From Candidatus Bathyarchaeota archaeon (GTDB lineage: Archaea > Thermoproteota > Bathyarchaeia > 40CM-2-53-6 > CAVXDP01): DNA of 64,000 bases. The notes under the pieces are model-generated. The model did not search any database. It was given only the letters and a program-made list of their open reading frames with translations, and had not been told where the DNA came from. The translations under genes and the position numbers were made by a program. Location: assembly GCA_963760485.1 (NCBI GenBank), contig CAVXDP010000008.1, positions 17,209 through 81,208 on the forward strand, in the 5' to 3' direction. Position 1 is the stretch's first letter; each line of letters begins with the position of its first letter. Below are positions 27,403 to 45,359 of the stretch, piece after piece.

Positions 27403-27535
27403 GCGAACTTCTGGATAGCTTTTAGGTAGATCTCGAGAGCAGAATGCGTTATCGCGACAGCTAGAGAACCAAGTCTTAAATATTGAACAGTTCGCCATTT
27501 ACTCTATTGCGGACAGATTCTAGAGGAGAAACAAA

Positions 27536-28776
27536 ATGAGTCTAAAAGGAAATGAAACGAGACTTGGTGTAGCAAGGGTCGCCTTGTTCGACCAGCCGAA
27601 ACGGATAATCTTCGCCACAGGAGCTGTGGAACAATTCGTTGGGTCTGAGACGAAACGTCTGGGGGGCAATAAGACACTCTTAGTAACTGACAAGGGTGTG
27701 AAGAAAGCCGGCATGGCTGACACGGTCTTAGATCTCATCAAGAAAGAGAATCTTAGCGTGGATGTATATGATAATCTCACGGCTGAACCAACAGCAGAAA
27801 GCCTGAGAGCCGCAGTTAAGTTCGCTCGGGAAGGCAAGTACGATGCGGTTGTTGGAGTAGGCGGAGGCGCGGTGCATGGACACTGCGAAGATGAGTGCTA
27901 TTTGTCTTACAAACCCGGGAGATCCAATGGTATACGTGAATCCTATGGAGGACAAGAGCAAGTATCCGGCTAAGCCCAAGATACTAATCCCAACCACATC
28001 TGGAACAGGAAGCGAGGCCTCGAACGCCGCCGTAGTAGTTGAAGGATTATACAAAACTTGGGCGGCAAACACCAACGTTTTTGCTGATGTAGCTATCGTT
28101 GATCCATTGATGGCAATTTCATGTCCACCGAAACAGACAGCTGGAAGTGCACTGGATGCTCTAAGCCACAACGTTGAAGGGCTGATTGATAGAGAAGCTA
28201 ATCCTCTGTCGGACGCTCAAGCTCTTGAAGGCTCAAGACTTGTCTTCAAGTACGCAAGAAGAGCTTTCCATGCTGGCGACGATCTAGAGGCCAGATGGAA
28301 CATGTCAGCCGCAGCGACACTCGGCGGAATAGTCATCGCTTATCCATGGATAGGAGGTCCAGCAATCCTTGGGCATTGCATTTCAGAAGCTCTTGGACCA
28401 CGATGGAATGTTCCTCATGGAGCTAGCCTGCGGTGTAGTCCTTCCATACATACTTCAGTTCAACCTGCCATCATGCATCAAGAAACTTGCGTATGTTTCA
28501 AAACAGGTACTGGGAGACGAAGTCTACGGTCTTTCACAACGTGAAGCTGCCTTTGCTTTCATTCATGCTGTGAAGACTCTCATGGAAGACATGGAATTGC
28601 CAACGAACCTCAAGCAATGGAATATTCCAAGCAAAGAACTGGATGAATTCGCCGAGTATATCTTCAAAGATCGCCAACACGTCTATTGTCTTCCAAGATT
28701 TAACCCGAGGAAGCTTACATCAGAAAACACGAAAGAACTGCTGCACTTGATGTATGAGGGAACCCTGCTAGAGTGA
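27536..28776 (+). CDS. iron-containing alcohol dehydrogenase, split by two apparent 1-bp frameshifts
   Basis: Three ORFs in frames 2, 0 and 1 (27536..27973, 27876..28544, 28369..28776). The first ends AVVGVGGGAV and the second begins MDTAKMSAI (consensus GGGSxMDxAK). Downstream come NVPHGAS then ACGVVLPYILQFN (consensus PHGxANAxLLPxVxxFN). Confidence 0.65.
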
Positions 28777-28840: not shown

Positions 28841-29443
28841 CTACGAAACCTGCTCGAATTTTTGAACTGTCAATTTGATGAGTTCCGTTTTCACTTCTTC
28901 CACAGGTCTATTGGAATTTATGGGAATAAGTCCTTCCGTTTTAACGAGTTCAAGATACCTCTCTCGCACCTTCTCTTGAAGATCTAACCTTTCGAGTACA
29001 GTCCTTTTCCGTTTGATTCTGTTCAGACCAACTTCAGGCGGAACATCCAGATAGAATACAATATCTGGTTTCAGAGCAAATTTGTTGATGGTCTTTATCC
29101 AGTTCACGTCAACTCCCTGAGCGCCCTGGTAGGCCAATGAAGAGTACAAGTAACGGTCGCAAACCACAGTCGTGCCCTTGTCGAGGCTTGGAAGGATTTC
29201 CTTCATTAGATGCTCAAATCGATCTGCCGAAAAGAGCAAAGCCTCCACTTCTGGAGGAACCTTTTCAGTGAGAAGCATTGATCGGATAGACTTGCCAACC
29301 GCACCATTCGAAGGTTCAGCAGTATATGCTGCGTCAAAGCCTCTTTGCCGAAGTTCATCAGTGAGAGTTCTTGAGTGAAATGTTTTGCCACACCCGTCGA
29401 TACCCTCCAGAACTATGAAGACTCCCCTTGATCTTGCTCGCAT
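28841..29443 (-). CDS. tmk: thymidylate (dTMP) kinase
   Basis: VLEGIDGCGKTF P-loop; about 200 aa. Confidence 0.8.
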   Translation of the reverse strand: MRARSRGVFIVLEGIDGCGKTFHSRTLTDELRQRGFDAAYTAEPSNGAVGKSIRSMLLTEKVPPEVEALLFSADRFEHLMKEILPSLDKGTTVVCDRYLYSSLAYQGAQGVDVNWIKTINKFALKPDIVFYLDVPPEVGLNRIKRKRTVLERLDLQEKVRERYLELVKTEGLIPINSNRPVEEVKTELIKLTVQKFEQVS

Positions 29444-29598
29444 TGATGTTTAACCCATTCCACACGCTACCAGTACGCACTCCACTAGTTATGAAAGGTC
29501 ATACATAAGTCAGGAACAAAGCAGCCTATTCCAGTAGATCGCAAAGTGGCGTCGACTATTACACAGCCATGATCCTATTGTCAGTGTGTATCTCCTGA

Positions 29599-29669
29599 TG
29601 CGCACACACACAAAATTACCTTGGCCTAACAGCCCGATTTCAAGCGAGCCGCACCAAGGTATACACACA
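29599..29669. repeat. GT/CA-rich palindromic mini-repeat (family copy 1)
   Basis: GCGCACACACACAAAATTACCTTGGCCTAACAGCCCGATTTCAAGCGAGCCGCACCAAGGTATACACACAC. The TACCTTGG...CCAAGGTA arms are flanked by (CA)n. Confidence 0.7.
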
Positions 29670-29856
29670 CGTCAACCGAGGCCCACAAATTGCAGGAAGA
29701 ATCCTCAAAACCTTCTCTATCCACTCGGCAACAATCGATTCACTATCTTATGTCGATTGCTTTGTTCGCTAAGACACGGCGGAATTTGCTAACAAACGCT
29801 TTCAGTTCAATATTAACAAACCGATTAATGAAATATGAGGAGTTCAGGAATAACAA

Positions 29857-31480
29857 TTAATCTGGGGGGATCTGTTTGAATTGTAGTTCCATCGGGATGC
29901 CTTTCATCTTGTGGTATGCACGAGATACGTAGTAAATGATGAATGATGGTGCTATGAACATTGTTATGGTTATCCATATGTAGAATGAGCTTGCGAGACC
30001 GGTCAGGAATGGCAGTAGCATGGAGTAGTCTAGGGCAACACTGATAATGAAAGTCAAGAGCCCAAGTATGAAGAGAACTGGAACTCCGCCAATCTTCTTC
30101 TTGACGATCTCAGGCGATTTCTCGAATATCGCCTTTCCCCTTGATGTGAATGGAAAGACCATGCCGACAACTCCAACTATCGCCCATGCAAAGAACCATG
30201 AAAGTATCGTGTAAGCGATCCATGATGCTTGATAGATGAATATGTACAGGAAGATCTCTCCGATTATCAATCCAAGCAATACGGCTGCCCATGGTGATCC
30301 TCGTTTGTCTGTTTTAGCGAAGAAGGTTGGGAGGACTCTGTCGAAAGAGTACGCGAAGATATTTCGAACCGGTCCGAAGGCGGCTCCCATACCTGCGGCG
30401 AACCATGTGATTGCAGCCATGGCGCAAGAAAGGACCGCGTAGCCAGCATTAGGGTTCGCGTAGACAAGCATAAAACTTGGCACAGGCATAATGGTTCCCA
30501 ATGGCCACCCCTGCCAAGTTCCAAATCCTGCGCCACCCGGCGCGAAATATGATGCTCCGGAGCCCAGAATTCTCCGCTGAACCCATAGTATGCAAGGGAA
30601 TAGAAAAGCTCCCAGAATATGAATAGGAGTATTAATGCTCCCAGCATAGCTCGCTATAGCTGCCTTTCTTATCTCCTTCACTTCGCCCATTATATTCGCG
30701 GTGTAGGTTGATCCTAGAGTATTCAGAGCCACGAAGGTGATTCCAGCGCCGAGAGACACATTCATGTCGTATAATCCGACAGGCCATTTGGCAGCCTTTG
30801 CTGCATCCAAAACCGCTTGGTAAGTAGTACCCGACATCATGTTGAATCTTTCAATAAACGTCGGAAGCCCTCCGCCTGTAAGGACTCCAATGTCAAAGAT
30901 CACGAGGGAAAGGACACCGGAAATCACTCCAATCCAAGAAAGAATCATGGCCGACTCTTGCTCCTCTCCACATGATTAGGAATTCCACGACTACGAGAAG
31001 ACCACCTACTAGCATCATTCCAATAGGAGCGTCTATTGAGTTGGCGAGGAGCCAATACGGGTGGGTGCTAGCCAACTTTCCAAGCTCGGAAATTGCGATG
31101 GTTCTCAGAACATTGTTGATACCAAATCCGACAGCGAGGTATGTGAGGCTACCTGCCCATGAAGCTCCGATTGTGGTTAGAACCCAACCTGCAGAGAATC
31201 CCCATGCTGGAGAGAGTATGCGGCTCCCCCAAATGTACTCGCCTCCCGAGCGTGGCATAGCTATCGAGAACCAGATGTAGAGAAGGGCTGGAATGAACAT
31301 CAGTAGTACAGCCGGGATGACGGCGATCGGTACATTCACACCCGGATAAGCCTGATGTGTCCAGAGAAGAAGAATGTTGCAATTAGCAATGCCCGGCGTC
31401 ATGAATGCAAAGGCTAAGGCATCCCATGGTCCTATGACTCGCGTGAGCCCAGATGTTTTTCTGATGAAAACTTCCGTCAA
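29857..31480 (-). CDS. APC-superfamily permease paralogue, split by an apparent frameshift near 30945-30955
   Basis: ORFs 30893..31480 and 29857..30948 lie in different frames; both are multi-TM. Ends ...MELQFKQIPPD like the paralogue at 21125. Confidence 0.6.
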
Positions 31481-31568
31481 AGAATGCCAACCTTCCCCAC
31501 AGATGCGTAGACAGCTAGATACACTAGAGCGATATTTAATACTTCACTGTACAAATATGTGCATTAAC

Positions 31569-31763
31569 CTATGCACCCGGCGCCTTCCATACCCCCCTTT
31601 TGATGAGCTTCATCGTGATTTCATCAGCGAGTTTTGCTGAATCCGCATGTTTACCTGGGGGTTTTTCAATCGCTAGGTTCTTCGGCCAGATTGGTTCCTC
31701 GTAAATGAGCTTGTATATTTCTGTTCGCAGGTCTCTTATCCAGTTTCCATTCTTGGCGTTCAT
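31569..31763 (-). CDS. small hypothetical protein (64 aa)
   Basis: ORF only; lies between the permease and the CN-hydrolase. Confidence 0.2.
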   Translation of the reverse strand: MNAKNGNWIRDLRTEIYKLIYEEPIWPKNLAIEKPPGKHADSAKLADEITMKLIKRGVWKAPGA

Positions 31764-31805
31764 TCTGTACTCTCTTAGGGCATCTATGTAGAATGGAGCT
31801 GCGGC

Positions 31806-32672
31806 TCAGCCAGAGCCATATGATGGTGCTCTTCCCATGATCTGTCCATGATAATCTACGATCATTGAGCTTCCGCCTGACACGTTTACGGAGTCTTTCG
31901 AGTTCACCGTCAGGTAGTATGGTCCGAGGTTAGGAGCAATGAGGTAGCAGGTGTTGTCTAGGGCTCTTGCTCTATTCTGAATTTCAAACCATCCCCTGCC
32001 TATCAATGGTTCAGCCTCAGCACCCCGATAAATTATCTCTGCACCATTCATAGCCAATCCCCTTGCAGTTTCAGGATACTCAGCGTCTTGGCATATCATT
32101 GTCCCGATTCGCCCGATCTCCGTGTCAGTGACTGGGAAAAAGGAGTCCAGCTTGTAGCCATATTTGGCTATCCACTGGTCCCAGACGTCATGCGGCGTTG
32201 TTGTGTGTTCTTTTATGTAGACCTGAAGTTTATGATACCTGTGAATCACCTTCCCATTTGGATTTACTATGAAGGCGACGTTGAAGTAACGGTTGGGAAA
32301 ATCAGGATTCTTCGCTCTACTCTGAGCGATTACATACGTCTTGAACTCTTTTGCCATCTGACCAAGTTTATCAGTCTCTTCACCGGGGATGTCTATCGCA
32401 ATCTTCTCGTAGTATTCCAAGTGATCCATGTCGAAGACTTCATCAGTAAATCCCTGCAAGGCACCCTCCGGCAATGCGATGAGTCTTACAGGCAACTCGA
32501 CCTCGGTCAGCCAAACAGCTGCGCTCATCGCATCATGAATATGCTCCAAGTTTACGGAGATTTCCTTTCGCTTCTCGACACCACGAAAAGATGTTTGGAG
32601 AGCCACCGCCATGTATGGTTGTACCATACCACACATCCCATCAACAACGAGAAGCAGGCTACATATTAGCAT
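31806..32672 (-). CDS. carbon-nitrogen hydrolase (nitrilase superfamily) protein
   Basis: ...RLIALPEGALQG... and ...GTMICQDAEYPE... (catalytic Glu and Cys regions). Confidence 0.65.
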   Translation of the reverse strand: MLICSLLLVVDGMCGMVQPYMAVALQTSFRGVEKRKEISVNLEHIHDAMSAAVWLTEVELPVRLIALPEGALQGFTDEVFDMDHLEYYEKIAIDIPGEETDKLGQMAKEFKTYVIAQSRAKNPDFPNRYFNVAFIVNPNGKVIHRYHKLQVYIKEHTTTPHDVWDQWIAKYGYKLDSFFPVTDTEIGRIGTMICQDAEYPETARGLAMNGAEIIYRGAEAEPLIGRGWFEIQNRARALDNTCYLIAPNLGPYYLTVNSKDSVNVSGGSSMIVDYHGQIMGRAPSYGSG

Positions 32673-32823
32673 TCACAGTTGGTAGTTTCTATCTGCAAGA
32701 TGCTGTGCTTTACCTTGATTTTCACAGTGTACTTCACGTTCCTGTCAATTCGAAAGATAGCGAGCCCGGTAGTATAGTAAAGAGGGGGTTTGGGGGATTC
32801 CTCCCCCGATGAAGTCCTAATTA

Positions 32824-32912
32824 TTTGTGTGCTTATCCATTGGTGCGACCGTTCAAAATCCTACCGTCATTTTTCGTTGAATTGTGTGTGTAGAGATGGC
32901 CTTGGTGCAGCC
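32824..32912. repeat. GT/CA-rich mini-repeat (family copy 2)
   Basis: TTTGTGTGCTTATCCATTGGTGCGACCG ... GAATTGTGTGTGTAGAGATGGCCTTGGTGCAGCC. Confidence 0.55.
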
Positions 32913-33052
32913 AGCTTAAGACTAGACTATTTAGTATGGATGGCTTCCCTAAAGGAGCTGTCAATTATTCTTTCAGAACTTTGGAATCATAATGCCGTGT
33001 CGTGCGGCCAAACGAATCCGGCTGCCACATGCATTCTTTTTTTCAGTCATGG

Positions 33053-33874
33053 CTAGGCTCCACCGAGAGTGATTATCAGGTCTGTGATAAAACCCGCGAA
33101 CAATCCAACGAAGATCCCAATCATCAGAACATCATTTGTGCTTTGCCTCCTTCCTGAATTGTACATCAACAACGAGACGAAAACCAATGCGCCACCAGCA
33201 ACTGCTAGGAAAAAGATGTACAGAGAAGCCGAGGTCCATAGGCTACCTAGTAGAGTTCCAATAAATGTCGGGCCACCACCTACTAGGCCTGCCAAGACAA
33301 TGAAACGAACACTCGGTCGTTTTGAAAGCCCTGTTAGTGGACTAGCTATTCCGAAGCCTTCTGTGGCATTATGTGCTGCGAATCCAATCACCAAAATTAT
33401 CGCTAACCCCATTGCTCCTGACACATACGACTGGCCTATTGCAAGTCCTTCGCTAAAGTTGTGAGCTCCGATGCCCACTGCAATCATCATTGAGAGCCTG
33501 TAAGCGTTGACCTGCTTCTGCTGTCCAGAGTCACTACTGCCACCCGCCACGCCGGTTTCCTTCATATATCGAGCTCCGTACCAAGTCAACCCCAGAAGCC
33601 CTACCGCCAGCCCTCCGAACATGGCTAGAAGGTCAAGCAGCGCATCTTCCACAGGTGACTTCCCCACAAAAGCACTGCTCGCGGCATCCGCAGCGGATTG
33701 CCAAGCATGACTAAGCACGTCGACAATGAGAAATATTAGAATACCAACTGCAAACGCGTTGAGGAATCCTTTCTTTCTTGGACTAACGCCTTGAGCTACG
33801 GCAAGCGGTAACCCGAGAAAGATTGTGAGGCCAGCAAACGCTCCAAGGAGAAGGAGCTGAGGATAATCGATCAA
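33053..33874 (-). CDS. ZIP-family divalent metal transporter
   Basis: Two HNxxEG motifs (AHNFSEGLAIGQS, AHNATEGFGIAS); multi-TM. Confidence 0.7.
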   Translation of the reverse strand: MIDYPQLLLLGAFAGLTIFLGLPLAVAQGVSPRKKGFLNAFAVGILIFLIVDVLSHAWQSAADAASSAFVGKSPVEDALLDLLAMFGGLAVGLLGLTWYGARYMKETGVAGGSSDSGQQKQVNAYRLSMMIAVGIGAHNFSEGLAIGQSYVSGAMGLAIILVIGFAAHNATEGFGIASPLTGLSKRPSVRFIVLAGLVGGGPTFIGTLLGSLWTSASLYIFFLAVAGGALVFVSLLMYNSGRRQSTNDVLMIGIFVGLFAGFITDLIITLGGA

Positions 33875-33984
33875 TCCACGTAATCTCGCTTGCTAAGAGC
33901 ATATCATATGTCATAATTAACCTTGATCGACAGTATGTCGGTGTCTGAAAGGCCTAGCTGTCGGAATCTGCTCAAGACTATTGG

Positions 33985-34136
33985 GCCAAGGTAGAATTGT
34001 GTGTATATACCTTGGTGCGCGCCGCTTGAAATCGGGCTGTTAGGCCAAGGTAATTTTGTGTGTACCTCCTGGTGCGACCGCCCTAAGACCAAACCATGAT
34101 TCTTGAAATGTGTGTGCGCACCAAGGTATACCACCA
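33985..34136. repeat. GT/CA-rich mini-repeats (family copies 3-4, compound)
   Basis: CCAAGGTAGAATTGTGTGTATATACCTTGGTGCGCGCCGCTTGAAATCGGGCTGTTAGGCCAAGGTAATTTTGTGTGTACCTCCTGGTGCGACCG ... GAAATGTGTGTGCGCACCAAGGTATACCACCACC. The central 45 bp is near-identical to the reverse complement of copy 1. Confidence 0.7.
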
Positions 34137-34342
34137 CCAAACCCTCTTTAGCGCTTAGGGCTTACACGATTAAACCAATATCTTTATATGATGGTAAACT
34201 CATATGGATATAGGTGAATAAGCGAACGTTGGGTGAATGAAATGATAACAAGAAAAGTAACAGCGGGCATCCGCGATTTTGCTTACTGGAAGAACGCCTG
34301 ACGTCTGCAAATCCTGTATGAGAATTGATGTTGGTAAATGGA

Positions 34343-34486
34343 ATGGGTCGAATCAGTGTGGAACTCTCTGATGAGCTGGAAAAGAAGTTAAGGTTCAAAA
34401 CGGTGGAGAGATTTGGCGGGAAAAAGGGCGACCTATCAAGATCTGTTGAAGAAGCCGTAAAGACATGGGTTGCCAAAGAAAAATAA
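34343..34486 (+). CDS. ribbon-helix-helix (CopG/Arc-like) small DNA-binding protein, 47 aa (below the ORF-track size cutoff)
   Basis: MGRISVELSDELEKKLRFKTVERFGGKKGDLSRSVEEAVKTWVAKEK has the beta-strand + two-helix RHH pattern. The overlapping antisense 104-aa ORF 34162..34476 is low-complexity. Confidence 0.45.
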   Translation: MGRISVELSDELEKKLRFKTVERFGGKKGDLSRSVEEAVKTWVAKEK

Positions 34487-34741
34487 ATGAAGAAAAAATC
34501 TGCTTGAATAGCTCAAGGTAAGTAGGGGAATTAGCTCAGTTGCGAAAAGGCTCCCCTCTTATAGTATGAACGTGTATTCTTCTCTTTCTCAGTCTGTTGT
34601 CAATCCTAATTGGAGACAGGTTCGTGAATATGGGAGCTTACCACGTTTCGACAACTTACGAACCTAGACCCCGAGCTACTATGAGTTTGTCTTTGGTAGA
34701 TTCTCAACTATGTGTGGGAAGTCAGCTGCGGTTTGCGTTCG

Positions 34742-35884
34742 TTATTGATTTTGGTCAAAGACCCAAGATGCTCTGCTAAGGATCTCTCCAATTGGCAAGT
34801 GCTGTGTGCAAAGCTTCTCGCATCTTCTGCATCTTATGCATAGTTTGGCCCGGTTTTCTGGAGTGATCTGTTCCCAGTATTTTCTCTTGATCTCATTGTC
34901 TCTTCCTTTTGCAAGGTATTCGTTGTACAGGGATAGTATCTGAGGTATGTTCACTCCTTGAGGACAGGGCATGCAATATCTGCACCCAGTGCAACCTAGT
35001 AATCCTATTTCATTGTATTTCTTGGCGACGCGATCGAAGATTTTCAGTTCTTTCTGAGTTAGGGAGTTGGGAATAGAAGTGTTGGCGGTGTCCAAGTTCT
35101 CTTTTACCTGTTCTAATGTGCTCATGCCGCTGAGAACAACGGATACCTCTGGGTGATTCCAAACCCATTGCAGAGCCAGCTTCGCGGGCTTGGAATGGAT
35201 GCCTGCTTTGTCCCAAATAGCCTGAACCGCTTTTGGTGGTGTGGCGGCCAAGTTTCCGCCAGCTATTGGCTCCATAACGATGATTGGAAGCCCCTTAGAA
35301 GCTGCGTACTTGAGCCCTCTTCTGCCGGCTTGGTACTCTGTGTCAACGTAGTTGTATTGGATCTGGCAGAAAGTCCAGTCGTAGCTGTCTACGATTTTTT
35401 TGAACAAAGGGTATTCGTCATGAAAACTGAAGCCTAGATAACCTATCTTTCCTTGTTGTATCTTTCTCTCAGCCCAGTCGAAAACGCCCAGTCGCCTCAG
35501 TTTCGGCCAAACCTCTTTTTCAAGACCGTGGAGGAGGTAAAAGTCAATTTGGTCAACCTGGAGTCTGCGGAGCTGGATTCTTAGGAACTTGTTCATATCT
35601 CGCTGCGAGTTCACGAGCCAAGTTGGCATCTTGGTAGCTACACGCACTTTTTCTCGATAGCCATTGTCCAAAGCCTTTCCGACCAAGACCTCGCTATAGC
35701 CCTTGTGATACGGGTAGGCCGTGTCCACATAGTTGACACCATGATCGATGGCATACCGTATCATGCGAATCGCTTTTGCCTCATCGATTTTCGCATCATC
35801 CGCTCCTTTGATAGGTAATCTCATTGCCCCTAATCCCAGAGCTGATACGTTCCAGTCTAGTTTCCCAAACTTCCTGTACCTCAT
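34742..35884 (-). CDS. aldo/keto reductase with C-terminal 4Fe-4S ferredoxin domain (COG1453-like)
   Basis: AKR N-terminal (GAMRL...DTAYPYHKG...) plus a C-terminal CTGCRYCMPCP / CIRCRRCEKLC. Confidence 0.7.
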   Translation of the reverse strand: MRYRKFGKLDWNVSALGLGAMRLPIKGADDAKIDEAKAIRMIRYAIDHGVNYVDTAYPYHKGYSEVLVGKALDNGYREKVRVATKMPTWLVNSQRDMNKFLRIQLRRLQVDQIDFYLLHGLEKEVWPKLRRLGVFDWAERKIQQGKIGYLGFSFHDEYPLFKKIVDSYDWTFCQIQYNYVDTEYQAGRRGLKYAASKGLPIIVMEPIAGGNLAATPPKAVQAIWDKAGIHSKPAKLALQWVWNHPEVSVVLSGMSTLEQVKENLDTANTSIPNSLTQKELKIFDRVAKKYNEIGLLGCTGCRYCMPCPQGVNIPQILSLYNEYLAKGRDNEIKRKYWEQITPENRAKLCIRCRRCEKLCTQHLPIGEILSRASWVFDQNQ

Positions 35885-36310
35885 GAGAAGTCACTTTCTC
35901 CTGCGCAGCCGAGAGATCACATTCGTGGCGACAAGTATCTAGATTTGATTGAACAAGAATTCTTTGTTACTCACTCTTTTCAAGCTGACTCACGCCTTGT
36001 AAGCTCCATGGGTCATCTTTCCTGCAACAACCAAATTACCTTCCGTAATTTCCAAGAGAGAGCAGTCCATGGATGCATAGTTCAAATCCCATCCCGCCCG
36101 CCACAAAACTTTCCGGTTTTGATAAGATAGAATCATTTTGAGTGTTTCCATTCGCAGTACAGTCTTCACTGAAGCGTGACTAGGTACTGGCACAAAACGT
36201 GAAACCAGAAAACGTGGAATCAGTAAGACTACTATATCGTACGGCAAGCAGCGAATGCGGACGCAGAAGCGTCTTTGAATCTTTAGGAAGAATTATCCAA
36301 AAGCTTTCAC

Positions 36311-36347
36311 AATTGTGTGTGTGCGCACCAAAAGATACTACACACAC
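36311..36347. repeat. GT/CA-rich mini-repeat (family copy 5)
   Basis: AATTGTGTGTGTGCGCACCAAAAGATACTACACACAC. Confidence 0.55.
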
Positions 36348-36627
36348 TTCTATCATGGCCTGATCTCTATAGGAAGAAAGTCTAGGTCCTTTGCGTAGGG
36401 TTGCAGCCGCTCGCGTCGTCGGAAGTTCCTTATTCGAGCGTTAGTGCTATGTTGTATCTGAGAGGTGACTAATGTATGGCAAGCAAGAGAAGTAGGGGAG
36501 CTAAGAAAGCGTGGACGACTGCTAGAGATAACAAGGTGGCGGAAGCACGCAAGAAGAAGAAGGACCGCAAAGCCGCCTATTCCACGTATCACTAGGAACA
36601 CTGTTCTATTAATGAGAACGCACCCAT

Positions 36628-36685
36628 GGCGAAGTGGTCCTAGGTTTCAGGTGCTCGAACTGCCTGAAAGGTTAGGCCACTCGCC
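36628..36685 (+). ncRNA. 58-nt extended imperfect hairpin (candidate structured RNA / regulatory element)
   Basis: GGCGAAGTGGTCCTAGG-TTTCAGG-tgctcgaactg-CCTGAAA-GGTTAGGCCACTCGCC has a 7-bp perfect inner stem plus a roughly 14-bp outer stem. It lies in a 340-bp stretch with no credible CDS. Confidence 0.25.
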
Positions 36686-36762
36686 GTTTGGACCAAAAGA
36701 GTAGTAGGAGTTCGCTTCAGTTAAGAAACATTTTAGAAACATTCCTTCATAAGACTCAAACA

Positions 36763-37176
36763 ATGAAAACGACAATATCCATTAAGAGTTCACTCATAGC
36801 TCCTTGTGGAATGAATTGCGGAATCTGTATGGCATATCTTAGAGAGAAAAAGAGTTGCCCTGGTTGTAGAGGAAGCAATGATAACAAATCATTTAGTTGC
36901 GTCAATTGCAGAATCAGAAACTGTGATGAGTTAAAGAATCATAATATGACATTTTGCCTTGAATGTGAAAAACTGCCCTGTGTGAGATTAAGAACATTAG
37001 ACAAAAGATATCGAACCAAATACAATATGAGTATGATTGAAAACCTTGAAACTATCAAAACATTTGGAATAAGAAAATTTGTCAAAAATGAAAAAGTTCG
37101 ATGGACTTGCTTGAAATGTGGAGGGATAATTTGTGTTCATAGAGGATTCTGCTTTAGTTGTGGAGAACAGAGCTAG
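36763..37176 (+). CDS. DUF3795-like Cys-rich protein
   Basis: Multiple CxxC pairs: APCGMNCGICMAY, CPGCRG, CVNCRIRNC, CLECEKLPC, CLKCGG, CFSCG. The locally AT-rich gene likely starts at the ATG at 36763; the longest ORF starts at 36688. Confidence 0.55.
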   Translation: MKTTISIKSSLIAPCGMNCGICMAYLREKKSCPGCRGSNDNKSFSCVNCRIRNCDELKNHNMTFCLECEKLPCVRLRTLDKRYRTKYNMSMIENLETIKTFGIRKFVKNEKVRWTCLKCGGIICVHRGFCFSCGEQS

Positions 37177-37210
37177 CTAGCCTTCAATAGCATTCTTAGG
37201 ACACACAGAG

Positions 37211-37239
37211 AAGGAGGGGGCCTGGGGGATTCCTCCCCA
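37211..37239. repeat. GC hairpin motif GAGGGGG-N3-TGGGGGATTCCTCCCC (copy B)
   Basis: AAGGAGGGGGCCTGGGGGATTCCTCCCCACC; a near-identical motif sits at 32781-32807. Confidence 0.6.
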
Positions 37240-37278
37240 CCATTAACTACTATCAACACCTTTCTCGTCGTCGCTTCA

Positions 37279-37300
37279 GGTGGTGCGCACACACACAATT
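37279..37300. repeat. GT/CA-rich mini-repeat (family copy 6, inverted orientation)
   Basis: GGTGGTGCGCACACACACAATT is the reverse complement of AATTGTGTGTGTGCGCACCACC. Confidence 0.5.
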
Positions 37301-37456
37301 CAACCATTCGTTTAGGAATCGAAAATCTGAAATCTGTCGATAGACGCTAGTGTCAGGTAGCTTTCCGAGATTCGCTGTTACCAGAGGGTAAATGGTGCAC
37401 CTGCAAGAAGTGATAAATCGTCTAGACGCCAAAACGTTGGCCGCAGGCTGAAGTAA

Positions 37457-37951
37457 ATGGCAGAGAAATCCCGCTCAAGACGTAGATTTCTGAAGCATAC
37501 TGCCATGAGTTCGGTTGTTGCGATTGTGGGTTTTGCTGTCGCTGGATATGTTCTTCTAGGCCATCAGTCGCAGGAATGTTTTGGAATATACCTCATAGAG
37601 AACAACAAACTGGTGATATCGGACGAAGACATTGTATGGTACAATAGAACTTCTCATGAAATCAGACTTACCGAATTAGGAGTGAAGAAGATTGAGGAAT
37701 TGCAGGTGTCTGTATATGGCAACCCCTTTGTTGTAAAGATTGGCGGAGAAAAAATCTACAATGGATTATTTGTTACCCCTATCTCATCTGTATCCCAGCC
37801 ACCTTCAGAAGTAGTAATAGAGACTGTAGTTCAGAATAATACCATAAAGATACAGATGGGTTATCCTCCTTCACAATCTGGAGCTGAAGATCCAAGAAAC
37901 AATTCTAAGATATTTGACCATTTTCAAAGTATCAACAAATTAGTTCAGTGA
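37457..37951 (+). CDS. Tat-signal secreted hypothetical protein
   Basis: N-terminus SRRRFLKHTAMSSVVAIVGFAVAG is a twin-arginine motif plus h-region. Confidence 0.5.
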   Translation: MAEKSRSRRRFLKHTAMSSVVAIVGFAVAGYVLLGHQSQECFGIYLIENNKLVISDEDIVWYNRTSHEIRLTELGVKKIEELQVSVYGNPFVVKIGGEKIYNGLFVTPISSVSQPPSEVVIETVVQNNTIKIQMGYPPSQSGAEDPRNNSKIFDHFQSINKLVQ

Positions 37952-37969
37952 ACAAACATAATGGGTTAG

Positions 37970-38010
37970 ATGTGTGTGTATACCTTGGTGTGGCGCTAGA
38001 TTTGGACCAC
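37970..38010. repeat. GT/CA-rich mini-repeat (family copy 7)
   Basis: GATGTGTGTGTATACCTTGGTGTGGCGCTAGATTTGGACCAC is similar to the arm + core of copy 3. Confidence 0.5.
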
Positions 38011-38052
38011 TGATTGGCTTTCCCGCAGACACGAACAGAAAAGTTGCTTGAA

Positions 38053-38430
38053 CTAATCCAAGAGTTCAATCCAGATACCGTCTGGATCTTTGATGTAGAC
38101 CTCGGTTCCCTTAGCCTCAGATGGTTTGACAGCAACGTCAACTCCTTTCTTCACAAGCTCTACGTAAGCATGCTTCACATTTCTCACAGAAAAAGCGAGA
38201 TGATCAAGTTCTTCGCCTCTTGTATACTTCTTGTAGAACCTGCTGCCTTTCGGGTACCAGTTGAGTTCTAGTCTCTGTGGTGAACCAGGGCTCTTGAGGT
38301 GTACGTATCGTCCGCCATGAGGCATCTTACCGCGACTAATCTTTTTCATGCCTAAGACGTCCACGTAGAACCTTTCTGAACGATTCAGATCCCTTACTCT
38401 AATCCCTGTGTAGGTGAACCGGAATTTCAT
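38053..38430 (-). CDS. glyoxalase/VOC-family protein
   Basis: 125 aa with VOC-like N-terminus (GIRVRDLNRSERFYVDVLGM) and C-terminus (DPDGIWIELLD). Confidence 0.65.
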   Translation of the reverse strand: MKFRFTYTGIRVRDLNRSERFYVDVLGMKKISRGKMPHGGRYVHLKSPGSPQRLELNWYPKGSRFYKKYTRGEELDHLAFSVRNVKHAYVELVKKGVDVAVKPSEAKGTEVYIKDPDGIWIELLD

Positions 38431-38543
38431 TTGTATCCAAAGAATTGAGTTGTCAACAAAACCATTTACGTTCTTCGCCAGTACTGGTCAGGCCATGGTA
38501 GGTAGAGTATGCTGGCACTGCTATAACAACGAGTACAACATCT

Positions 38544-38981
38544 ATGGGCTCCACGAGTGCTCAAACAACTACTTCAACTACTGTTGTCACCACAGTGACC
38601 TATCAAGGAACAGAGTTGAAACTGCAAGTCACGAGTAATTCAACTATTTCAGGCTTGAGTTTCAACAAGAATACACGATTGATGAACTTCACAGTGAGTG
38701 GCCGCGATGGAACAAATGGTTTCTGCAGCGTTCACATATCGAAGGAGCTGTTAGATGGAAAACCAATTGTTCTACTGGATGGAAACCAAATACAAGCTGG
38801 TGTAAGTCAAGACGAAGCCAACTACTATGTCTATTTCACATACAATCATAGCAGTCACAATGTAGCGATTGGGGGATCTAACTCCATACCTGAATTTCTA
38901 TATGCTTTGACTACGTTGCTGTTGGTCTTGAGTGTTCTTCTGTTTGCAACGAAGACAAAACGTAGATATTGTCAAATGTAA
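38544..38981 (+). CDS. PEF-CTERM domain protein (Thr-rich, no detectable N-terminal signal peptide in-frame)
   Basis: C-terminus ...SNSIPEFLYALTTLLLVLSVLLFATKTKRRYCQM has a PEF motif + TM + basic tail. The N-terminus MGSTSAQTTTSTTVVTTV lacks a hydrophobic signal, and an in-frame stop lies upstream at 38499-38501. Confidence 0.5.
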   Translation: MGSTSAQTTTSTTVVTTVTYQGTELKLQVTSNSTISGLSFNKNTRLMNFTVSGRDGTNGFCSVHISKELLDGKPIVLLDGNQIQAGVSQDEANYYVYFTYNHSSHNVAIGGSNSIPEFLYALTTLLLVLSVLLFATKTKRRYCQM

Positions 38982-39002
38982 TGACACAACGTTGTTGTAG
39001 GA

Positions 39003-39045
39003 GAGAGGGGAATCGGAGGGTCAGGGGTGCAATCCTTCCCCTCTC
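39003..39045 (+). terminator. strong hairpin (10-bp perfect stem GAGAGGGGAA/TTCCCCTCTC, 23-nt loop) 20 nt after the PEF-CTERM gene
   Basis: Read directly from the sequence. It could be a terminator or RNA-stability element; there is no T-run. Confidence 0.35.
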
Positions 39046-39348
39046 AGGTTGGCAAGAAAAACTATTCCAGTGCCTAACCTACGAACATGTATCATCAAAT
39101 CAATCTTAAACAAGAGACATAACCGAAACTAAACGACTTTCACTGGGCACGTAATTATTCCCATTCTATTCATACTGATTATGTAACCCTTGCGAGACTC
39201 GTTCTGAAGTTTCTAATTGTGATACCTTGGCAGATTCTAGGATGGATCCATGTTAGACGAGCCACAAAAGCCGGAAGTGTTCAACATTAGCTGTATTGGT
39301 TAGCCACAGCACCCAGAATTTGAGAACCCAGGTTTAACTTACATCGCC

Positions 39349-39894
39349 CTATGACCGTCTACCCTGATAGGTTGTGCCATAGCTTTCCAATGATATTATC
39401 TCTTCCAACTTTTTTCTTGGTCTTACAGTATGGACGATCCTAGCCAACGGGTCGATCTTGTCACATGAGTATCCTAGAGCGATCAGCGCAACAATCTCGT
39501 ATTCATCAGGAAGCATCAGTATCTTGCGAATATCTTCATTGTTGAAGCTTCCAATCCAACATGTTCCAAGCGCCAAGGCTGTTGCTGCCAGGACCATGTG
39601 CTCAAGGGCAATCGTAGTATCTACAGCATACCATTTGGGAGAGGTTTTCTTGTTTCCACAGCCAACAATTACCACAGGTGATTCAGCCAAGAACTTTCCA
39701 TACTTACATGCTTTAGCAATGCTAACCCGCTTATCTTTGTCTCTTACGATGATGAAGTGCCAAGGCTGTAGATTAGCAGCCGAAGGCGCCAACCTAGCAG
39801 CTTCCAACACCTTGACAAGAACGTCTTCGGGTATCGGTGTCGATACGTAAGACCTTACCGACTTTCTTTGTCTGATAGTATCGAAAATATCCAC
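39349..39894 (-). CDS. nitroreductase-family protein
   Basis: N-terminus RKSVRSY...APSAANLQPW is the classic NAD(P)H nitroreductase motif. Confidence 0.75.
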   Translation of the reverse strand: MDIFDTIRQRKSVRSYVSTPIPEDVLVKVLEAARLAPSAANLQPWHFIIVRDKDKRVSIAKACKYGKFLAESPVVIVGCGNKKTSPKWYAVDTTIALEHMVLAATALALGTCWIGSFNNEDIRKILMLPDEYEIVALIALGYSCDKIDPLARIVHTVRPRKKLEEIISLESYGTTYQGRRS

Positions 39895-39904
39895 TTAATT
39901 CCCT

Positions 39905-40291
39905 CTATTCTGCCCGTTCTATTTCGATTTTCTCTCCACTTTTCACTTTGGTTAGATATTTTGTGTCTCCGATGATTCTTCCAAACACGTTTACCGAGCT
40001 GGCTGCCTTTGGTTGACTTCCTGTACTGGCTGGAGTGGTTCCGAAGAATATGCAGAAACAGTTTCCGGGAGGCCAGTAAGCCAAATCTCCAATGTTTACT
40101 TCTTCTTGGCTCTTTTCTTCTGGTACTTTTACAGGGATGCTGAAGTAGATTTCTTCTCCCCATCTGTTAACCATTCCTTTGATTGGCAACGCTTTCCAGA
40201 TGGCTTCAGCAGTCTTCGGGTTTTTTTCGGACATAATCTCCGCAGGAATGTCGCCTATTGATTGAGTCTTGATTCTGATCTTCCTGTCCAT
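39905..40291 (-). CDS. hypothetical protein (possibly cyclophilin-like fold family)
   Basis: 128-aa ORF; GDLAYWPPGNCFCIFFG resembles cyclophilin-like DUF proteins, but this is uncertain. Confidence 0.35.
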   Translation of the reverse strand: MDRKIRIKTQSIGDIPAEIMSEKNPKTAEAIWKALPIKGMVNRWGEEIYFSIPVKVPEEKSQEEVNIGDLAYWPPGNCFCIFFGTTPASTGSQPKAASSVNVFGRIIGDTKYLTKVKSGEKIEIERAE

Positions 40292-40454
40292 TTTGAATCA
40301 ATCTCGCGTTTGAACAATACCTCGGAAGCGTTTAGCACACTGCCGTAAAATCTCTCTTATGATGCCCTTAAAGGATCTGGCGTAGCATAAAAGAGAAGGA
40401 TCGATCTGGAAAGAAGTAGTTATCCAATTGCATGCCCATTGTATGCGTTAAGTA

Positions 40455-41264
40455 TTGCAGGCACAGCTAGGATGCTGCTGTGTAACCTTGATGAGCGATC
40501 TAATCGGTTTGGTGGGCCTCTTCTTTGCAGGCATAGTCGCAGGCGCTATCAATTCCGTGGCTGGTGGTGGCACGCTCATCTCTTTTCCTTCACTTGTAGC
40601 GTTTGGCCAACCAGAGATAATCTCTAATGCAACAAACACAGCGGCATTGTGGCCTGGGTCGCTTAGCAGCGCTCTCAGTTATCGAAAGGACACATCGGTC
40701 CAGCGCAGTTTGGTTATCACTCTTGCTATCCCCAGTCTGATTGGCGGTCTTCTTGGTGCCATGATTCTAGTTGTCACGCCTGCGGCGGCTTTCAAACGTG
40801 TCGTCCCATTCTTGGTTCTCTTTGCTACTTTGGTATTTGCGTTACGCGAGCTTCTTACTCGAAGATTTGGCAGTATTTCTACTGGCGCAGAGTGTGTGAC
40901 AACTGTTGGGCGAATCTGGGGTTTCATCTTTCAACTGTTCGTCGCTACTTACGGCGGCTACTTTGGGGCAGGCATAGGTATCCTCATGTTGGGATCTTTG
41001 AGTCTGATGGGTCTGCGTGATATTCACAAGATAAACGCAATCAAGACTCTGCTCGCCGCTATCATCAATGTAACTGCATTCGTTTTCTTTGCACTCGAAG
41101 GATTGGTAGTCTGGCCTTTGATGATTCTTATGGCGACAGGTTCTATTATTGGTGGCTACGGAGGCGCACGGTTAGCTAAACGGGTGAAACCTCGTCTTCT
41201 CTACTTGTTCGTGGTTGCCGTAGGCCTGCTGGTTTCAGGCTGGCTCTTTATCAGATCGTTCTAG
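40455..41264 (+). CDS. TSUP/TauE-SafE family membrane exporter (DUF81)
   Basis: 269 aa, 7-8 TM with two repeated halves; GAINSVAGGGT and GGYFGAGIGILM motifs. Confidence 0.75.
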   Translation: MQAQLGCCCVTLMSDLIGLVGLFFAGIVAGAINSVAGGGTLISFPSLVAFGQPEIISNATNTAALWPGSLSSALSYRKDTSVQRSLVITLAIPSLIGGLLGAMILVVTPAAAFKRVVPFLVLFATLVFALRELLTRRFGSISTGAECVTTVGRIWGFIFQLFVATYGGYFGAGIGILMLGSLSLMGLRDIHKINAIKTLLAAIINVTAFVFFALEGLVVWPLMILMATGSIIGGYGGARLAKRVKPRLLYLFVVAVGLLVSGWLFIRSF

Positions 41265-41436
41265 CTGACCACTGAGTTTAGTCACCAGAAAACTGAAGAA
41301 GGATTTGGTAGCGGGGGATGTTACTGGGTCCCGTTTGAAGTGTGTGTATGCCCTAATGCGCTCTCTCTGGGGGTTCAGGGCCATGCAAAATCGATCTCCA
41401 CTTGCAAGAAGCTTTTGCATACGCCTTGGTTCGATG

Positions 41437-42617
41437 TCTTCGCTGGGTAGTGTTTTCTGTCGAATAGGCTACTGGTCATCTGCATGATACAAAGGCCTAT
41501 CCAATGAATCTCTTATAAGGATCCTCATTAGAAGGCCTTTGTATCTCTTCTAAGCATCCTCATTGGAAGGCCTTTGTATCTCTTCTAAGCATCCTCATTG
41601 GAAGGCCTTTGTATCTCTTCTAAGCGATCCTCATTGGAAGGCCTTTATATCTCTTCTAAGCATCCTCATTGGAAGAGCCTTTGTATCTCTTCTAAGCATC
41701 CCATGGATGCTTAGAAGAGCATATGAAGGCCTTCCAAGCATCAAGGATCCTTAGAAGGCCTTTGTATACTATAAGCCTTCCAATGAATGCCTTGGATGCT
41801 TAGAAGAGCATATTAGAAGGCCTTCCAATGAATACAAAGGATCCTTTAGAAGAGCCTTCATATGCCTTCTAAGAATCCTCATTGGAAGGCCTTTGTATCT
41901 CTTCGAAGAGATCCTCATTGGAAGGCCTTTGTATCTCTTCAAAGGATCCTCATTGGAAGGCCTATTGTATCTCTTCGAAGCATCCTCAATGGAAGGCCTT
42001 TGAAGAGATACATAAGCCTTCCTCAATGAAAGGATGCTTAGAAGAGATACAGAGGCCTTCCAAAGAATACATGGATGCTTAGAAGAGATACAAAGGCCTT
42101 CCAATGAATACAAAGGATGCTTAGAAGAGATACAAAGGCCTTCCAAAGAATACAAAGGATGCTTAGAAGAGATACAAAGGCCTTCCAATGAATACAAAGG
42201 ATGCTTAGAAGAGATACAAAGGCCTTCCAATGAATACAATGGATGCTTAGAAGAGATACAAAGGCCTTCCAATGAATACAAAGGATGCTTAGAAGAGATA
42301 CAAAGGCCTTCCAATGATACAAAGGATGCTTAGAAGAGATACAAAGGCCTTCCAATGAATACAATGGATGCTTAGAAGAGATACAAAGCCTTCCAATGGA
42401 ATACAAAGGATGCTTAGAAGAGATACAAAGGCCTTCCAATGAATACAAAGGATGCTTAGAAGAGATACAAAGGCCTTCCAATGAATACAAAGGATGCTTA
42501 GAAGAGATACAAAGCCTTCCAATGAATACAAAGGATGCTTAGAAGAGATACAGAAGGCCTTTGTATCATGCAGATGACCGGTAGCCTATTCGACAGAAAA
42601 CACTACCCAGCGAAGAC
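41437..42617. repeat. ~1.2-kb compound palindrome of tandem repeats
   Basis: The left array (about 41521-41700) holds about 5 tandem 35-bp units TCATTGGAAGGCCTTTGTATCTCTTCTAAGCATCC. The right array (about 42030-42555) holds about 13 tandem 42-bp units GGATGCTTAGAAGAGATACAAAGGCCTTCCAATGAATACAAA. These are the reverse complement of the left unit plus an ATACAAA insertion. A scrambled orientation-switching centre lies between them, and the whole structure is bracketed by a 60-bp inverted repeat (41437-41496 vs 42556-42617, 1 mismatch). ORFs inside it (MEGLCISSKHPLYS...) are repeat artefacts. Confidence 0.9.
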
Positions 42618-42753
42618 ACTAGACGCCTTTTCTCCTACATAATCAGAAACCTTTCCCCTTACAAGAGAAATGTTATACTGGCCAGGCCTGATAGTCTAGG
42701 TTAGTCTTTGGAAGTGCCTATTCTTCCAAATCTCTTCAGGGACCTGAGATAAC

Positions 42754-44043
42754 ATGAAACCGAAAGCTGTGAACTTGCCATACTGGGGGTTTGTCAAGGA
42801 CCCTTTGTACGGCTACGTCCGTCTAACGGATACGGAGAGGCGTATAATCGATACAGAACCGGTTCAGAGATTAAGAAGGATAAGACAACTTTCTGGGGCT
42901 GAGTACGTTTACCCGGCAGCAAATCACACAAGGTTTGAACATGCGTTAGGAACAATGTACCTTGCCGGAGTCTTGGCCGAAGCCCTTCCAGTCGATCTCA
43001 CCAAAGAAGATGTGGAAAAGCTCAAGATAGCGGCGCTGCTCCACGACGTAGGCCACGGGCCGTTTTCCCACGTCTTCGACCAGTTTCTGATCAAGCATTA
43101 TGGAAAGACCCATGAAGACATGACATCATGGATAATCAAGAGTTCCAGAGCAAGAGATATTCTTGAAGACGAGGGATTGGACTCTTCTGATTTAGCAAGT
43201 TTGTCAGTGGGGAAACTACACGACAAACAGAGGCCATTTTTTGATCAGGTAGTGTCTAGTGCCGTCGACGTTGACAAGATGGATTTTATTCCAAGAGACT
43301 CGTATCATACTGGTGCAGGATACGGCCAAGCTGACGTCTTCAGACTAATCTACACGATGGGCGTCTTGGAAGGAAACCTTGCCGTGGGCGTGACTGCCCT
43401 CCCAACTTTAGAGACGTTTCTGCTGGCGAGGCTTGAATCATTTAGAGCGATCTACTTTCATCGTGCTTCACGTGCAGTGCAGATAATGCTGGTGAAGGCC
43501 TTGGAGCAGGCCAAGGATGAGATAGGAGTCATCGATTTCAAATCTCCAGAGAACTATCTCGGTCTGGACGACTACACCGTGTGGTCCATGCTCAAGAGAT
43601 GTGAAGAATCAAAGCAGATATTGCATGACATCGAAACGCGGCGCCTGCTGAAATGTGCGTTCGAGAAAACGTTCTTTACAAGAGATGAAACAGTGACCAG
43701 CCTGTTTACCAACGAAGCAGTCCGGCATCAGATTGAGATGGAGATAGCGCGAAAAGCAAACGTTGACCCCAACGAAGTCATTATAGACGTTCCTTCACTT
43801 CCATCAGTCCCATACTCTCACTCTATTGGATCAGAACCCATGGATGTACCTATTTATGACAACTCGCGAACTAGAGAAAAAGCACCCAAGAGACTTGCAG
43901 AAATCTCGAGGGTAATCGATGTTCTTCGCGTTATCATGAACATAATCAGAATCTACACTGACGAAGCAAAGAGAGACAAAGTAGCTCGATCGTCAAGAGA
44001 GGTCTTGGGAAATCTGCCGGCTGAAACGAAGATATCATACTAA
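42754..44043 (+). CDS. HD-domain dNTP triphosphohydrolase (Dgt/SAMHD1-like)
   Basis: HD motif region FEHALGTMYLAG...LLHDVGHGPFSHVFD; 429 aa. Confidence 0.75.
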   Translation: MKPKAVNLPYWGFVKDPLYGYVRLTDTERRIIDTEPVQRLRRIRQLSGAEYVYPAANHTRFEHALGTMYLAGVLAEALPVDLTKEDVEKLKIAALLHDVGHGPFSHVFDQFLIKHYGKTHEDMTSWIIKSSRARDILEDEGLDSSDLASLSVGKLHDKQRPFFDQVVSSAVDVDKMDFIPRDSYHTGAGYGQADVFRLIYTMGVLEGNLAVGVTALPTLETFLLARLESFRAIYFHRASRAVQIMLVKALEQAKDEIGVIDFKSPENYLGLDDYTVWSMLKRCEESKQILHDIETRRLLKCAFEKTFFTRDETVTSLFTNEAVRHQIEMEIARKANVDPNEVIIDVPSLPSVPYSHSIGSEPMDVPIYDNSRTREKAPKRLAEISRVIDVLRVIMNIIRIYTDEAKRDKVARSSREVLGNLPAETKISY

Positions 44044-44667: not shown

Positions 44668-45359
44668 TTGAGACTGGTTGTAATCTCCGATATACATGCG
44701 AACTATGATGCTCTTGCCGCAGTGCTTCAGAAAATTCGTGACTTTGATTACCTAGTATGTCTAGGCGACTTGGTTGGATACGGCCCCCAACCGAACGAGG
44801 TCGTAGAGCAGATTCGTGATCTGAACCTAGAAGTAATTATCATGGGAAACCATGACTATGCAACGGTCACAGCTGATACAATAAATTTCGTTACACATGC
44901 AGCTCGAGCGATAGAATGGACGCGTCAAACACTCAAACCAGAAAACCTACACTTTCTATCGAAACTTCCACATTATGCAACCAAGACTCTTGGTGAGACT
45001 GTTGTCGCTTCTTATCATGGTAGCCCGAGAGATCCTCTAAATGAGTACGTCTATCCGGGGGAGCCTCAGTTCATGTTTCAAGCCCTAGTTGAAGAAGCCG
45101 CCGAAAGTTGCTGCTCTTAGGCCATACGCATATACCATTCCACTCATCCACTCCCTCTGGAGTTGTTGTTAACCCAGGAAGCATTGGTCAGCCTCGAGAT
45201 GGAGACGCCCGCTCAAGTTATGCCACAATAGAAATATCGAATGGCAACATCAACTGTTCGATTGAAAGAACCTCATACGACATAGAGTCAGCAGCGGGCA
45301 AGATTGTTCAAAAAGGCCTGCCAACATTTCTCGCTGACAGGCTATTTCTCGGAATCTAA
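44668..45359 (+). CDS. MJ0936/YfcE-type metallophosphoesterase, split by an apparent 1-bp deletion in the A-run at 45103-45106
   Basis: N-terminus MRLVVISDIHANYDAL...CLGDLVGYGP...MGNHD; second ORF LLLGHTHIPF...NPGSIGQPRDGD. The frames differ by one base. Confidence 0.65.

Follow-up and report, generated by a model that had tools for sequence, protein, structure and literature searches.

What kind of genetic element is a 1.2-kb compound repeat that is built from tandem units in both orientations and closed at its ends by an inverted repeat? We address this question on a locus of an uncultured archaeal lineage, Candidatus Bathyarchaeota archaeon (GTDB lineage Bathyarchaeia; 40CM-2-53-6; CAVXDP01), found within a 64,000-nt stretch of DNA (assembly GCA_963760485.1, contig CAVXDP010000008.1, positions 17,209 to 81,208 of the forward strand), hereafter referred to as the window, whose own coordinates are used throughout. 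The locus had been flagged by a first-pass annotation made from the sequence alone, and the bracket, the 35-bp and 42-bp arrays and the centre of switching orientation that it described were all recovered here. On balance, and with confidence somewhat above even, we interpret it as a minisatellite cassette, non-coding and rapidly evolving, which a 64-bp inverted repeat encloses within a Bathyarchaeia chromosome.

The outermost component of the locus is an inverted-repeat bracket, the two arms of which (left arm X, 41435–41498, forward strand; right arm X', 42555–42618, reverse strand) are 64 nt long, complementary at 63 of their 64 positions (98%, X' being the reverse complement of X with one mismatch) and separated by 1056 nt. 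This space of ~1,056 bp is occupied by contiguous repeats only. The arm sequence, which includes GTAGCCTATTCGACAGAAAAC, was found at two sites in the window, both at the locus, for 0 expected, and the inner 12 nt of X (GATACAAAGGCC) are common with the repeat unit. The arm also contains, at 41448–41473 and mirrored in X', an imperfect 11-4-11 palindrome (GTAG(T/C)GTTTTC-TGTC-GAATAGGCTAC, 8–9 of 11 positions complementary) that holds one strain-variable single-nucleotide polymorphism (SNP) and which, against a background of ~0.7 sites per kb, is not significant alone.

Between the arms, the repeats resolve into three modules, namely a (TCATTGGAAGGCCTTTGTAT, 20 nt), b (CTCTTCTAAGCATCC, 15 nt) and c (TTTGTAT, 7 nt). 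The 35-bp unit corresponds to a+b and the 42-bp unit to a+b+c, with start-to-start spacings of 35/36 bp and 41/42 bp, and the unit listing bears out the earlier description of the longer unit as the shorter one extended by ATACAAA. The anatomy of the locus was derived from this listing and from a k-mer orientation track. Following X, a 24-nt left junction fragment (41499–41522, ATCCAATGAATCTCTTATAAGGAT) opens with a 9-nt signature, T[A]TCCAATGA, and then takes the forward orientation. It leads into five forward 35/36-bp units composed of modules a and b (41523–41700, forward strand; 41521–41700 in the k-mer track), also detected by Tandem Repeats Finder. The mixed centre (41701–41876) consists of short blocks of alternating orientation, reverse at ~41705–41735, forward for a fragment at ~41750–41765 and reverse again at ~41775–41845. 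Four more forward 35/36-bp units (41877–42010, forward strand; 41866–42005 in the k-mer track) then form a second block, which adjoins an array of thirteen reverse 42-bp units (a+b+c; 42032–42554, reverse strand; 42005–42555 in the k-mer track), which are 94% alike and run up to X'. Tandem Repeats Finder reported the 42-bp unit in 13.5 copies at 41998–42561 (94% matches, score 984), a looser 35-bp period across 41508–42002 (76% matches) and, in the mixed centre, an 84-bp period as well. Searched with up to 3 mismatches, the 35-mer core GGATGCTTAGAAGAGATACAAAGGCCTTCCAATGA gave 15 matches, all at the locus (0.00 expected by chance), of which the minus strand carries 5 (left and centre) and the plus strand 10 (right); unit and arm are thus restricted to one locus within the 64-kb window. 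The arrays also display internal order, since variant positions come back every 3 units in the reverse 42-bp array, and variant units of the mixed centre, in which CATATG replaces GATACAA, are found ~89 bp apart and in both orientations.

The only palindrome of a single unit is its 8-bp core AAGGCCTT, and the GGATGCTT/AAGCATCC arms formerly thought to flank the unit turned out to be one module read on opposite strands. Folded singly, the units did not form any significant structure of their own (z = -1.1 and -0.6). For the complete locus in single-stranded form, the minimum free energy is -452 kcal/mol, reached through nested hairpins closed by pairing of X with X'. At an orientation switch (41670–41740), a local hairpin with a 31-bp stem (CTCTTCTAAGCATCC-CAT-GGATGCTTAGAAGAG) has an energy of -26 kcal/mol (z = -8.6) that none of 200 shuffled sequences matched; a 20-bp junction palindrome, GATACAAAGGCCTTTGTATC, was also recorded. 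Described initially as a single giant palindrome, the locus is made by the four additional forward units adjoining the 42-bp array (41877–42010) into a series of several nested quasi-palindromes.

To place the locus in its natural population, we relied on six short-read contigs from five other samples, reached via cluster representatives near-identical to the window's HD and TauE proteins, whose genes lie on either side of the repeats. Four contigs represent the HD side (L001, L002, L003 and L004) and two the TauE side (L007 and L008); L001, L002 and L007 originate from ERZ27247924 and ERZ27247591, L008 from JGI 3300032163, L003 from JGI 3300035701 and L004 from SRR11719878. The HD-side contigs start 166–332 bp upstream of the HD start and the TauE-side contigs stop 258–357 bp past the TauE stop, so that all six end within X, X' or the array. 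The junction of the left flank with X is matched base for base in L007 and L008, as is that of X' with the right flank in L001–L004. Outside the array, the HD-side contigs are 99.0–99.5% identical to the window (99.5% over 11.5 kb with 2 indels for L001), and the alignments of L007 and L008, which run into the array, reach 98.1–98.7%. As these outer junctions recur in independent assemblies, the bracket and a repeat array between its arms are real features of the natural population.

The same contigs revealed how much the array differs between strains, as far as it can be seen from contig ends covering at most ~135 bp of array each. Periods of 20, 32, 35 and 42 bp were found across strains whose flanks are ~98–99.5% identical. 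L002 carries 35-bp units, L007 shows the module order b-c-a-a-a-b-a with runs of the 20-nt module, and L001 has 32-bp units in which GGCC is shortened to GGC in all visible units and in the inner end of the arm, leaving the altered core AAGGCTTC and destroying the AAGGCCTT palindrome. The idea that 42 bp, as four helical turns, sets a phase for the cores therefore applies to the right arm of the window only, the other strains having mainly 20, 32 and 35 bp. These observations agree with what defines a prokaryotic minisatellite, or variable number tandem repeat (VNTR): the units are contiguous, head-to-tail, 20–42 bp long (within the ~10–100 bp of such repeats) and intergenic, and their number and composition are polymorphic, L001, L002, L007 and L008 differing both from the window and from each other.

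Orientation varies as well. L007 and L008 have forward units after the left arm, and L001 and L002 have forward units before the right arm, so that the arrays of the other strains look direct at both ends. The giant hairpin first proposed is for this reason not supported as a conserved property, and the giant palindrome is specific to this assembly. The window differs in that reverse units lead up to its right arm, opposite to L001 and L002, which show a forward a-module at that junction. Read inward, the window's right junction (GGCC-TTCTGTATCTCTTCTAAGCATCC-TTTGTAT-TCATTGG) matches the left junction of L008 exactly and that of L007 almost exactly, and a natural junction variant, TTCTGTATC, is shared by the right array of the window and by L008. 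The right arm of the window thereby mirrors the left end of the other strains, while its left junction bears, in the 9-nt signature that precedes the switch to forward units, their right junction in mirror image.

The two bracket arms, present across all the strains, co-vary. At three variable sites, both arms read C, T, A in ERZ27247591 (left arm in L007, right arm in L002), and T, C, G was found in the left arm of L008 and in the right arm of L001, which come from different samples; in the window, the left arm reads T, T, A and the right arm T, C, A. These shared strain-specific SNPs indicate, at the level of sequence comparison, an exchange between the arms by gene conversion or crossover. 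Such exchange would have two outcomes, gene conversion keeping the arms alike and crossover flipping the interior. The strain comparisons further suggest that slippage during replication and unequal recombination would change unit number and type, and the footprints left at palindromic junctions (GATACAAAGG|CCTTTGTATC and AAGCATCC-CAT-GGATGCTT) that strand or template switching may create the orientation blocks. We infer that the 31-bp-stem hairpin at 41670–41740 is one such switch footprint.

The interior of the locus rests on this assembly, and part of its arrangement may have arisen during sequencing or assembly. The bracket and array would then be real, and the features under suspicion would be the forward blocks facing the reverse block and the irregular centre, produced when long reads of a population mixed in array orientation or length, or chimeric reads of the fold-back or multiple displacement amplification type, were merged into one consensus. 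Several observations point in this direction. Residual single-base indels of the window break genes that are intact in sister strains, such as the Metallophos gene, which by comparison with two sister-strain contigs is split by a 1-nt deletion at 45104. Single-base length changes are ~40 times denser in the 42-bp array (4 in 546 nt) than in unique DNA compared with L001 (2 in 11.5 kb), a pattern suggesting that the long-read consensus is less polished in repeats. Moreover, reversed units beside X' were found in no other assembly. A classic fold-back chimera would however read A-X...X'-A', where A is a single flank, and this structure was not seen, as the outer flanks here differ (TauE side and HD side) and both junctions are independently reproduced; the suspicion of an inverted chimera raised in the first-pass annotation is thus dismissed for the bracket and the array. 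In addition, the left arm of 35-bp units is not an in-place reverse complement of the right arm of 42-bp units, an observation that also led us to reject, in its simple form, a mosaic of two flipped states. Both the array of 13 reverse units and the place where it joins X' are clean and match the natural TTCTGTATC variant of L008, and the CATATG variants of the centre keep their phase as they recur and occur either way round, which sets them apart from random noise of the consensus. We consequently regard a partly artefactual interior as possible but doubtful, and the block order of the window as likely real.

With the Metallophos gene included, the genes of the window that look split by frameshifts comprise an Fe-ADH in three pieces, two amino-acid permeases, Metallophos itself and a PEP synthase (27482–28770, 29857–31480, 21125–22766, 44668–45359 and 54525–56922). 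They suggest residual long-read indel errors, or else pseudogenes.

Returning to the minisatellite cassette, its genomic context is that of a Bathyarchaeia chromosome. Archaeal housekeeping genes flank the locus (deoxyhypusine synthase, CLP1-type kinase, eIF5A, SRP54, L21e, Rpb4, PCNA and primase large subunit), and the nearest named homologues of the HD protein belong to Bathyarchaeia metagenome-assembled genomes (MAGs). The array locus ends ~135 bp upstream of the start of the HD gene (42754–44043), whose product has HD and HD_assoc_2 domains and is weakly dGTPase-like, far under curated cut-offs. In relatives with an 80–85% identical HD, thymidylate kinase (Tmk) lies directly upstream of HD, with an intergenic region of 200–330 bp and no array. 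In the window, Tmk is located at 28841–29443, and homology to this ancestral intergenic region stops at ~29545 and restarts at 42662 with CAAGAGAAATGTTATAC. Given that Tmk stands beside HD in the relatives, this break in homology implies a lineage-specific insertion of ~13.1 kb (29546–42661), in agreement with the earlier placement of the locus, which had HD on one side and an accessory segment on the other. The inserted segment consists of transport and redox genes, which encode an amino-acid permease, a CN hydrolase, a ZIP protein, an aldo-keto reductase, a DUF3795 protein, a nitroreductase, a cyclophilin-like protein and TauE, and the bracketed array sits 42 nt inside its right end. A relative whose TauE is 84% identical (L017) has another neighbourhood around this gene and no such array, and two further contigs, L009 and L016, end short of the locus.

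Beyond the insertion, and outside the bracket, the ancestral region upstream of HD (42662–42753, forward strand) has kept the motif CAAGAGAAATGTTATAC, followed by GATAGTCTAGGTTAGTCTT within 42662–42700, in relatives with 80–85% identical HD (L010, L011, L012 and L014), and this motif is probably the HD promoter or leader. A derivation of X' from ancestral intergenic DNA duplicated in inverted orientation was considered and rejected, as its alignment to the intergenic region of the relatives was matched by 275 of 500 shuffles. Close to the ends of the insertion, a direct repeat matching at 15 of 17 positions (ACATAAGTCAGGAAC at 29505–29519 and ACATAATCAGAAAC at 42637–42650; ~0.03 in a post hoc shuffle test) may be what is left of a duplicated target or of an attachment core, or could be due to chance; this weak repeat was not convincing as a target-site duplication of the 13-kb insertion.

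Other repeats were noted in and around this segment. A second long inverted repeat (29606–29670 and 33999–34063, 65 nt, 94% complementary, 4328 nt apart) begins shortly after the left end of the insertion, with its arms on either side of the genes for the amino-acid permease, the CN hydrolase and the ZIP protein; in sequence it is unrelated to the bracket arms of the array. A motif of its arms, CACCAAGGTATACACACA, occurs 4 times in the window for 0.02 expected, always in the insertion (including 34119–34136 and 37973–37990), and a similar GGTGCGCACACACA tandem is present at 3953–4002 of the relative L017. A perfect 31-bp tandem duplication (2.0 copies) is located at 7341–7402, in the overlap of a PhoU-domain open reading frame (ORF; 6853–7482) with another ORF (7358–7810).

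Could the array code for a product, or serve as a site for a known cellular system? Its non-coding nature, already proposed from the sequence, is upheld by periods of 20, 32, 35 and 42 bp across strains and by a stop that falls in every frame each 3 units of the 35-bp array. A coding repeat protein was discarded on the grounds that none of the periods of 20, 32 and 35 bp is divisible by 3, that stops recur and that the repeat peptides (a synthetic query of all open ones) had no match in a protein database of 5.8 billion clusters. Rfam families and tRNAs were likewise searched over the whole window and none was found, which excluded a known RNA family and a tRNA-derived attachment site. Among the window ORFs scanned against Pfam, which represent most but not all of them, there was no orc1/cdc6, rep, parA, segA, recombinase, integrase, transposase or cas gene. 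That the locus does not belong to the clustered regularly interspaced short palindromic repeats (CRISPR), as the first-pass annotation had recognised, is consistent with this absence of cas genes, with units that are contiguous without spacers and with an extra 7-nt segment that is the same in all units.

The same annotation had listed an iteron or centromere-like array and a replication origin next to a variable satellite, and of these candidates the evidence favours the last. An array of phased sites bound by a dimeric DNA-binding protein, acting as a partition site, as an iteron or origin, or in the regulation of HD, might account for the palindromic 8-bp core AAGGCCTT, for the regular spacing of the thirteen 42-bp units and for a location 135 bp ahead of the start of a gene. 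We nevertheless judge it very improbable. In L001, whose flanks are 99.5% identical to those of the window, every visible unit has lost the core in favour of AAGGCTTC, spacing changes with the strain (20, 32, 35 or 42 bp), and the locus is missing altogether beside the HD genes whose products are 80–85% identical. The scanned ORFs include no adjacent regulator gene and, as stated above, no orc1/cdc6, parA or segA. The GC content of the locus (0.45–0.46) is like that of neighbouring sequence, with neither an AT-rich unwinding region nor a skew inflection at the locus, and the HD promoter motif stands outside the bracket and is kept in relatives without array. An archaeal replication origin is not supported, for want of Orc1/Cdc6 in the scanned ORFs and of an AT-rich unwinding element, nor is a partition (centromere-like) site, since neither a parA/segA-type ATPase nor a centromere-binding protein gene was found in the window. 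Finally, a Xer/dif site consists of two 11-bp imperfect inverted arms around a 6-bp spacer (PMC2958812). No site with at least 9 of 11 complementary positions (spacers of 4–10 nt) was present in the 35-bp and 42-bp consensus arrays, which led us to reject a dif/Xer site, despite a putative resemblance to archaeal dif, and which likewise speaks against a binding array; the dif-like 11-N(4-10)-11 matches of the locus are found at orientation switch points only.

The variable minisatellite might alternatively be maintained as a flip-flop or contingency cassette, with arms kept complementary by selection or frequent exchange and an array whose state modulates the HD gene or the local behaviour of the chromosome. 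In that case, inversion as well as expansion and contraction would be frequent within populations, and the locus would correspond, in an archaeon, to the phase-variable loci of bacteria, in the form of a foldback-like minisatellite. It resembles invertons in its inverted-repeat bracket and in the sequence next to X', which is inverted in the window relative to L001 and L002. It departs from them by arms that are long (64 bp), by the lack of a site-specific recombinase among the scanned ORFs and by an HD promoter motif located outside the bracket; furthermore, the inversion is seen here between strains, and the left half of the window misfits a simple flip. We hold such a maintained cassette to be quite unlikely.

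The insertion and the long arms raise the further prospect of a mobile element, non-autonomous and of Foldback or MITE (miniature inverted-repeat transposable element) type, with 64-bp terminal inverted repeats and tandem subrepeats, that came with the 13-kb insertion or caused it. Long terminal inverted repeats are a property of Galileo, a eukaryotic Foldback element (PMC3688188), and as in the Foldback elements of Drosophila (FB, Galileo) the inverted arms of tandem subrepeats of the window can fold into one hairpin and are non-coding. The size (~1.2 kb), the length and complementarity of the terminal repeats (64 nt, 98%), the opposition of subrepeats on two arms and the location within a lineage-specific insertion, 42 nt from its right end, would all suit this type of element, as would a 7-nt direct repeat, ACGCCTT, set off from the arms by 7 nt on one side and 4 nt on the other. 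With these gaps to the arm ends, however, the repeat is no canonical target-site duplication; at the ends themselves the flanks read GGTTCGA|X and X'|CTAGACG and none was seen. Neither a transposase or integrase among the scanned ORFs nor an empty site was found, and the subrepeats of the other strains have the same direction at both ends, unlike the Foldback architecture. The element is, in addition, single-copy in all searches made. Besides the window itself, the tandem b-module pattern was searched in GTDB representatives (185,579 species), where the one match, a 33-bp duplication within a gene of a MAG from Rhizobium, was unrelated. Neither IMG/VR nor the JGI metagenome contigs yielded a match to the arm and unit patterns, the latter scan being incomplete for short contigs as it missed L008, a JGI contig holding the arm, and blastn against plasmids and phages was also without match. 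Taken together, these results make a mobile element quite unlikely and reduce its likeness to Foldback elements to one of architecture.

Several points weigh against the minisatellite cassette that we favour. The left half of the window has forward 35-bp units where a simple flip of the whole cassette predicts reversed ones, and extra rearrangements must therefore be assumed. The other strains are known from contig ends, with at most 135 bp of array. The co-variation of the arms could reflect selection for complementarity and not passive gene conversion, and the 13 regular units of the right arm, 94% alike and in 42-bp phase, could be compatible with a binding array. We saw nothing to indicate a sequence-specific cellular function, an absence of evidence that is not evidence of absence, and the negative scans are incomplete, since that of the JGI contigs missed L008.

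Compared with known repeats, the cassette nonetheless has its own character. It differs from prokaryotic minisatellites by its 64-bp inverted-repeat bracket, its co-varying arms and the opposed blocks that form a quasi-palindrome in the window. A close archaeal parallel may be sought in Borgs, the extrachromosomal elements of Methanoperedens, whose tandem repeats are presented as rapidly evolving, recently formed and of independent origins (PMC9879509). Both cases involve archaeal, fast-evolving tandem direct repeats that differ between close relatives. The repeats of Borgs pervade a giant linear element and are often genic, whereas those described here occupy a single locus in 64 kb of an ordinary chromosome; they are moreover imperfect (94% and 76% matches), present in both orientations and enclosed by an inverted-repeat bracket. 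We would describe it as an orientation-variable minisatellite, bracketed by an inverted repeat, in an archaeal chromosome.

As it stands, the locus has no bearing on replication origins or centromeres. It identifies a recombination-prone and hairpin-prone spot ~135 bp upstream of an HD gene, which is the break point of every short-read assembly examined. Such repeats are near-invisible in this lineage precisely because every short-read contig examined breaks at this locus, and the window provides a concrete case, from archaea not yet in culture, of a minisatellite that is hypervariable and quasi-palindromic. It may serve as a strain-typing marker, as a natural test case for the way in which archaea tolerate and remodel long hairpin-prone DNA and as a warning of systematic contig breaks. 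Finally, if the arms do exchange often within populations, this cassette would represent a rare documented case of an invertible, variable DNA element in Archaea.

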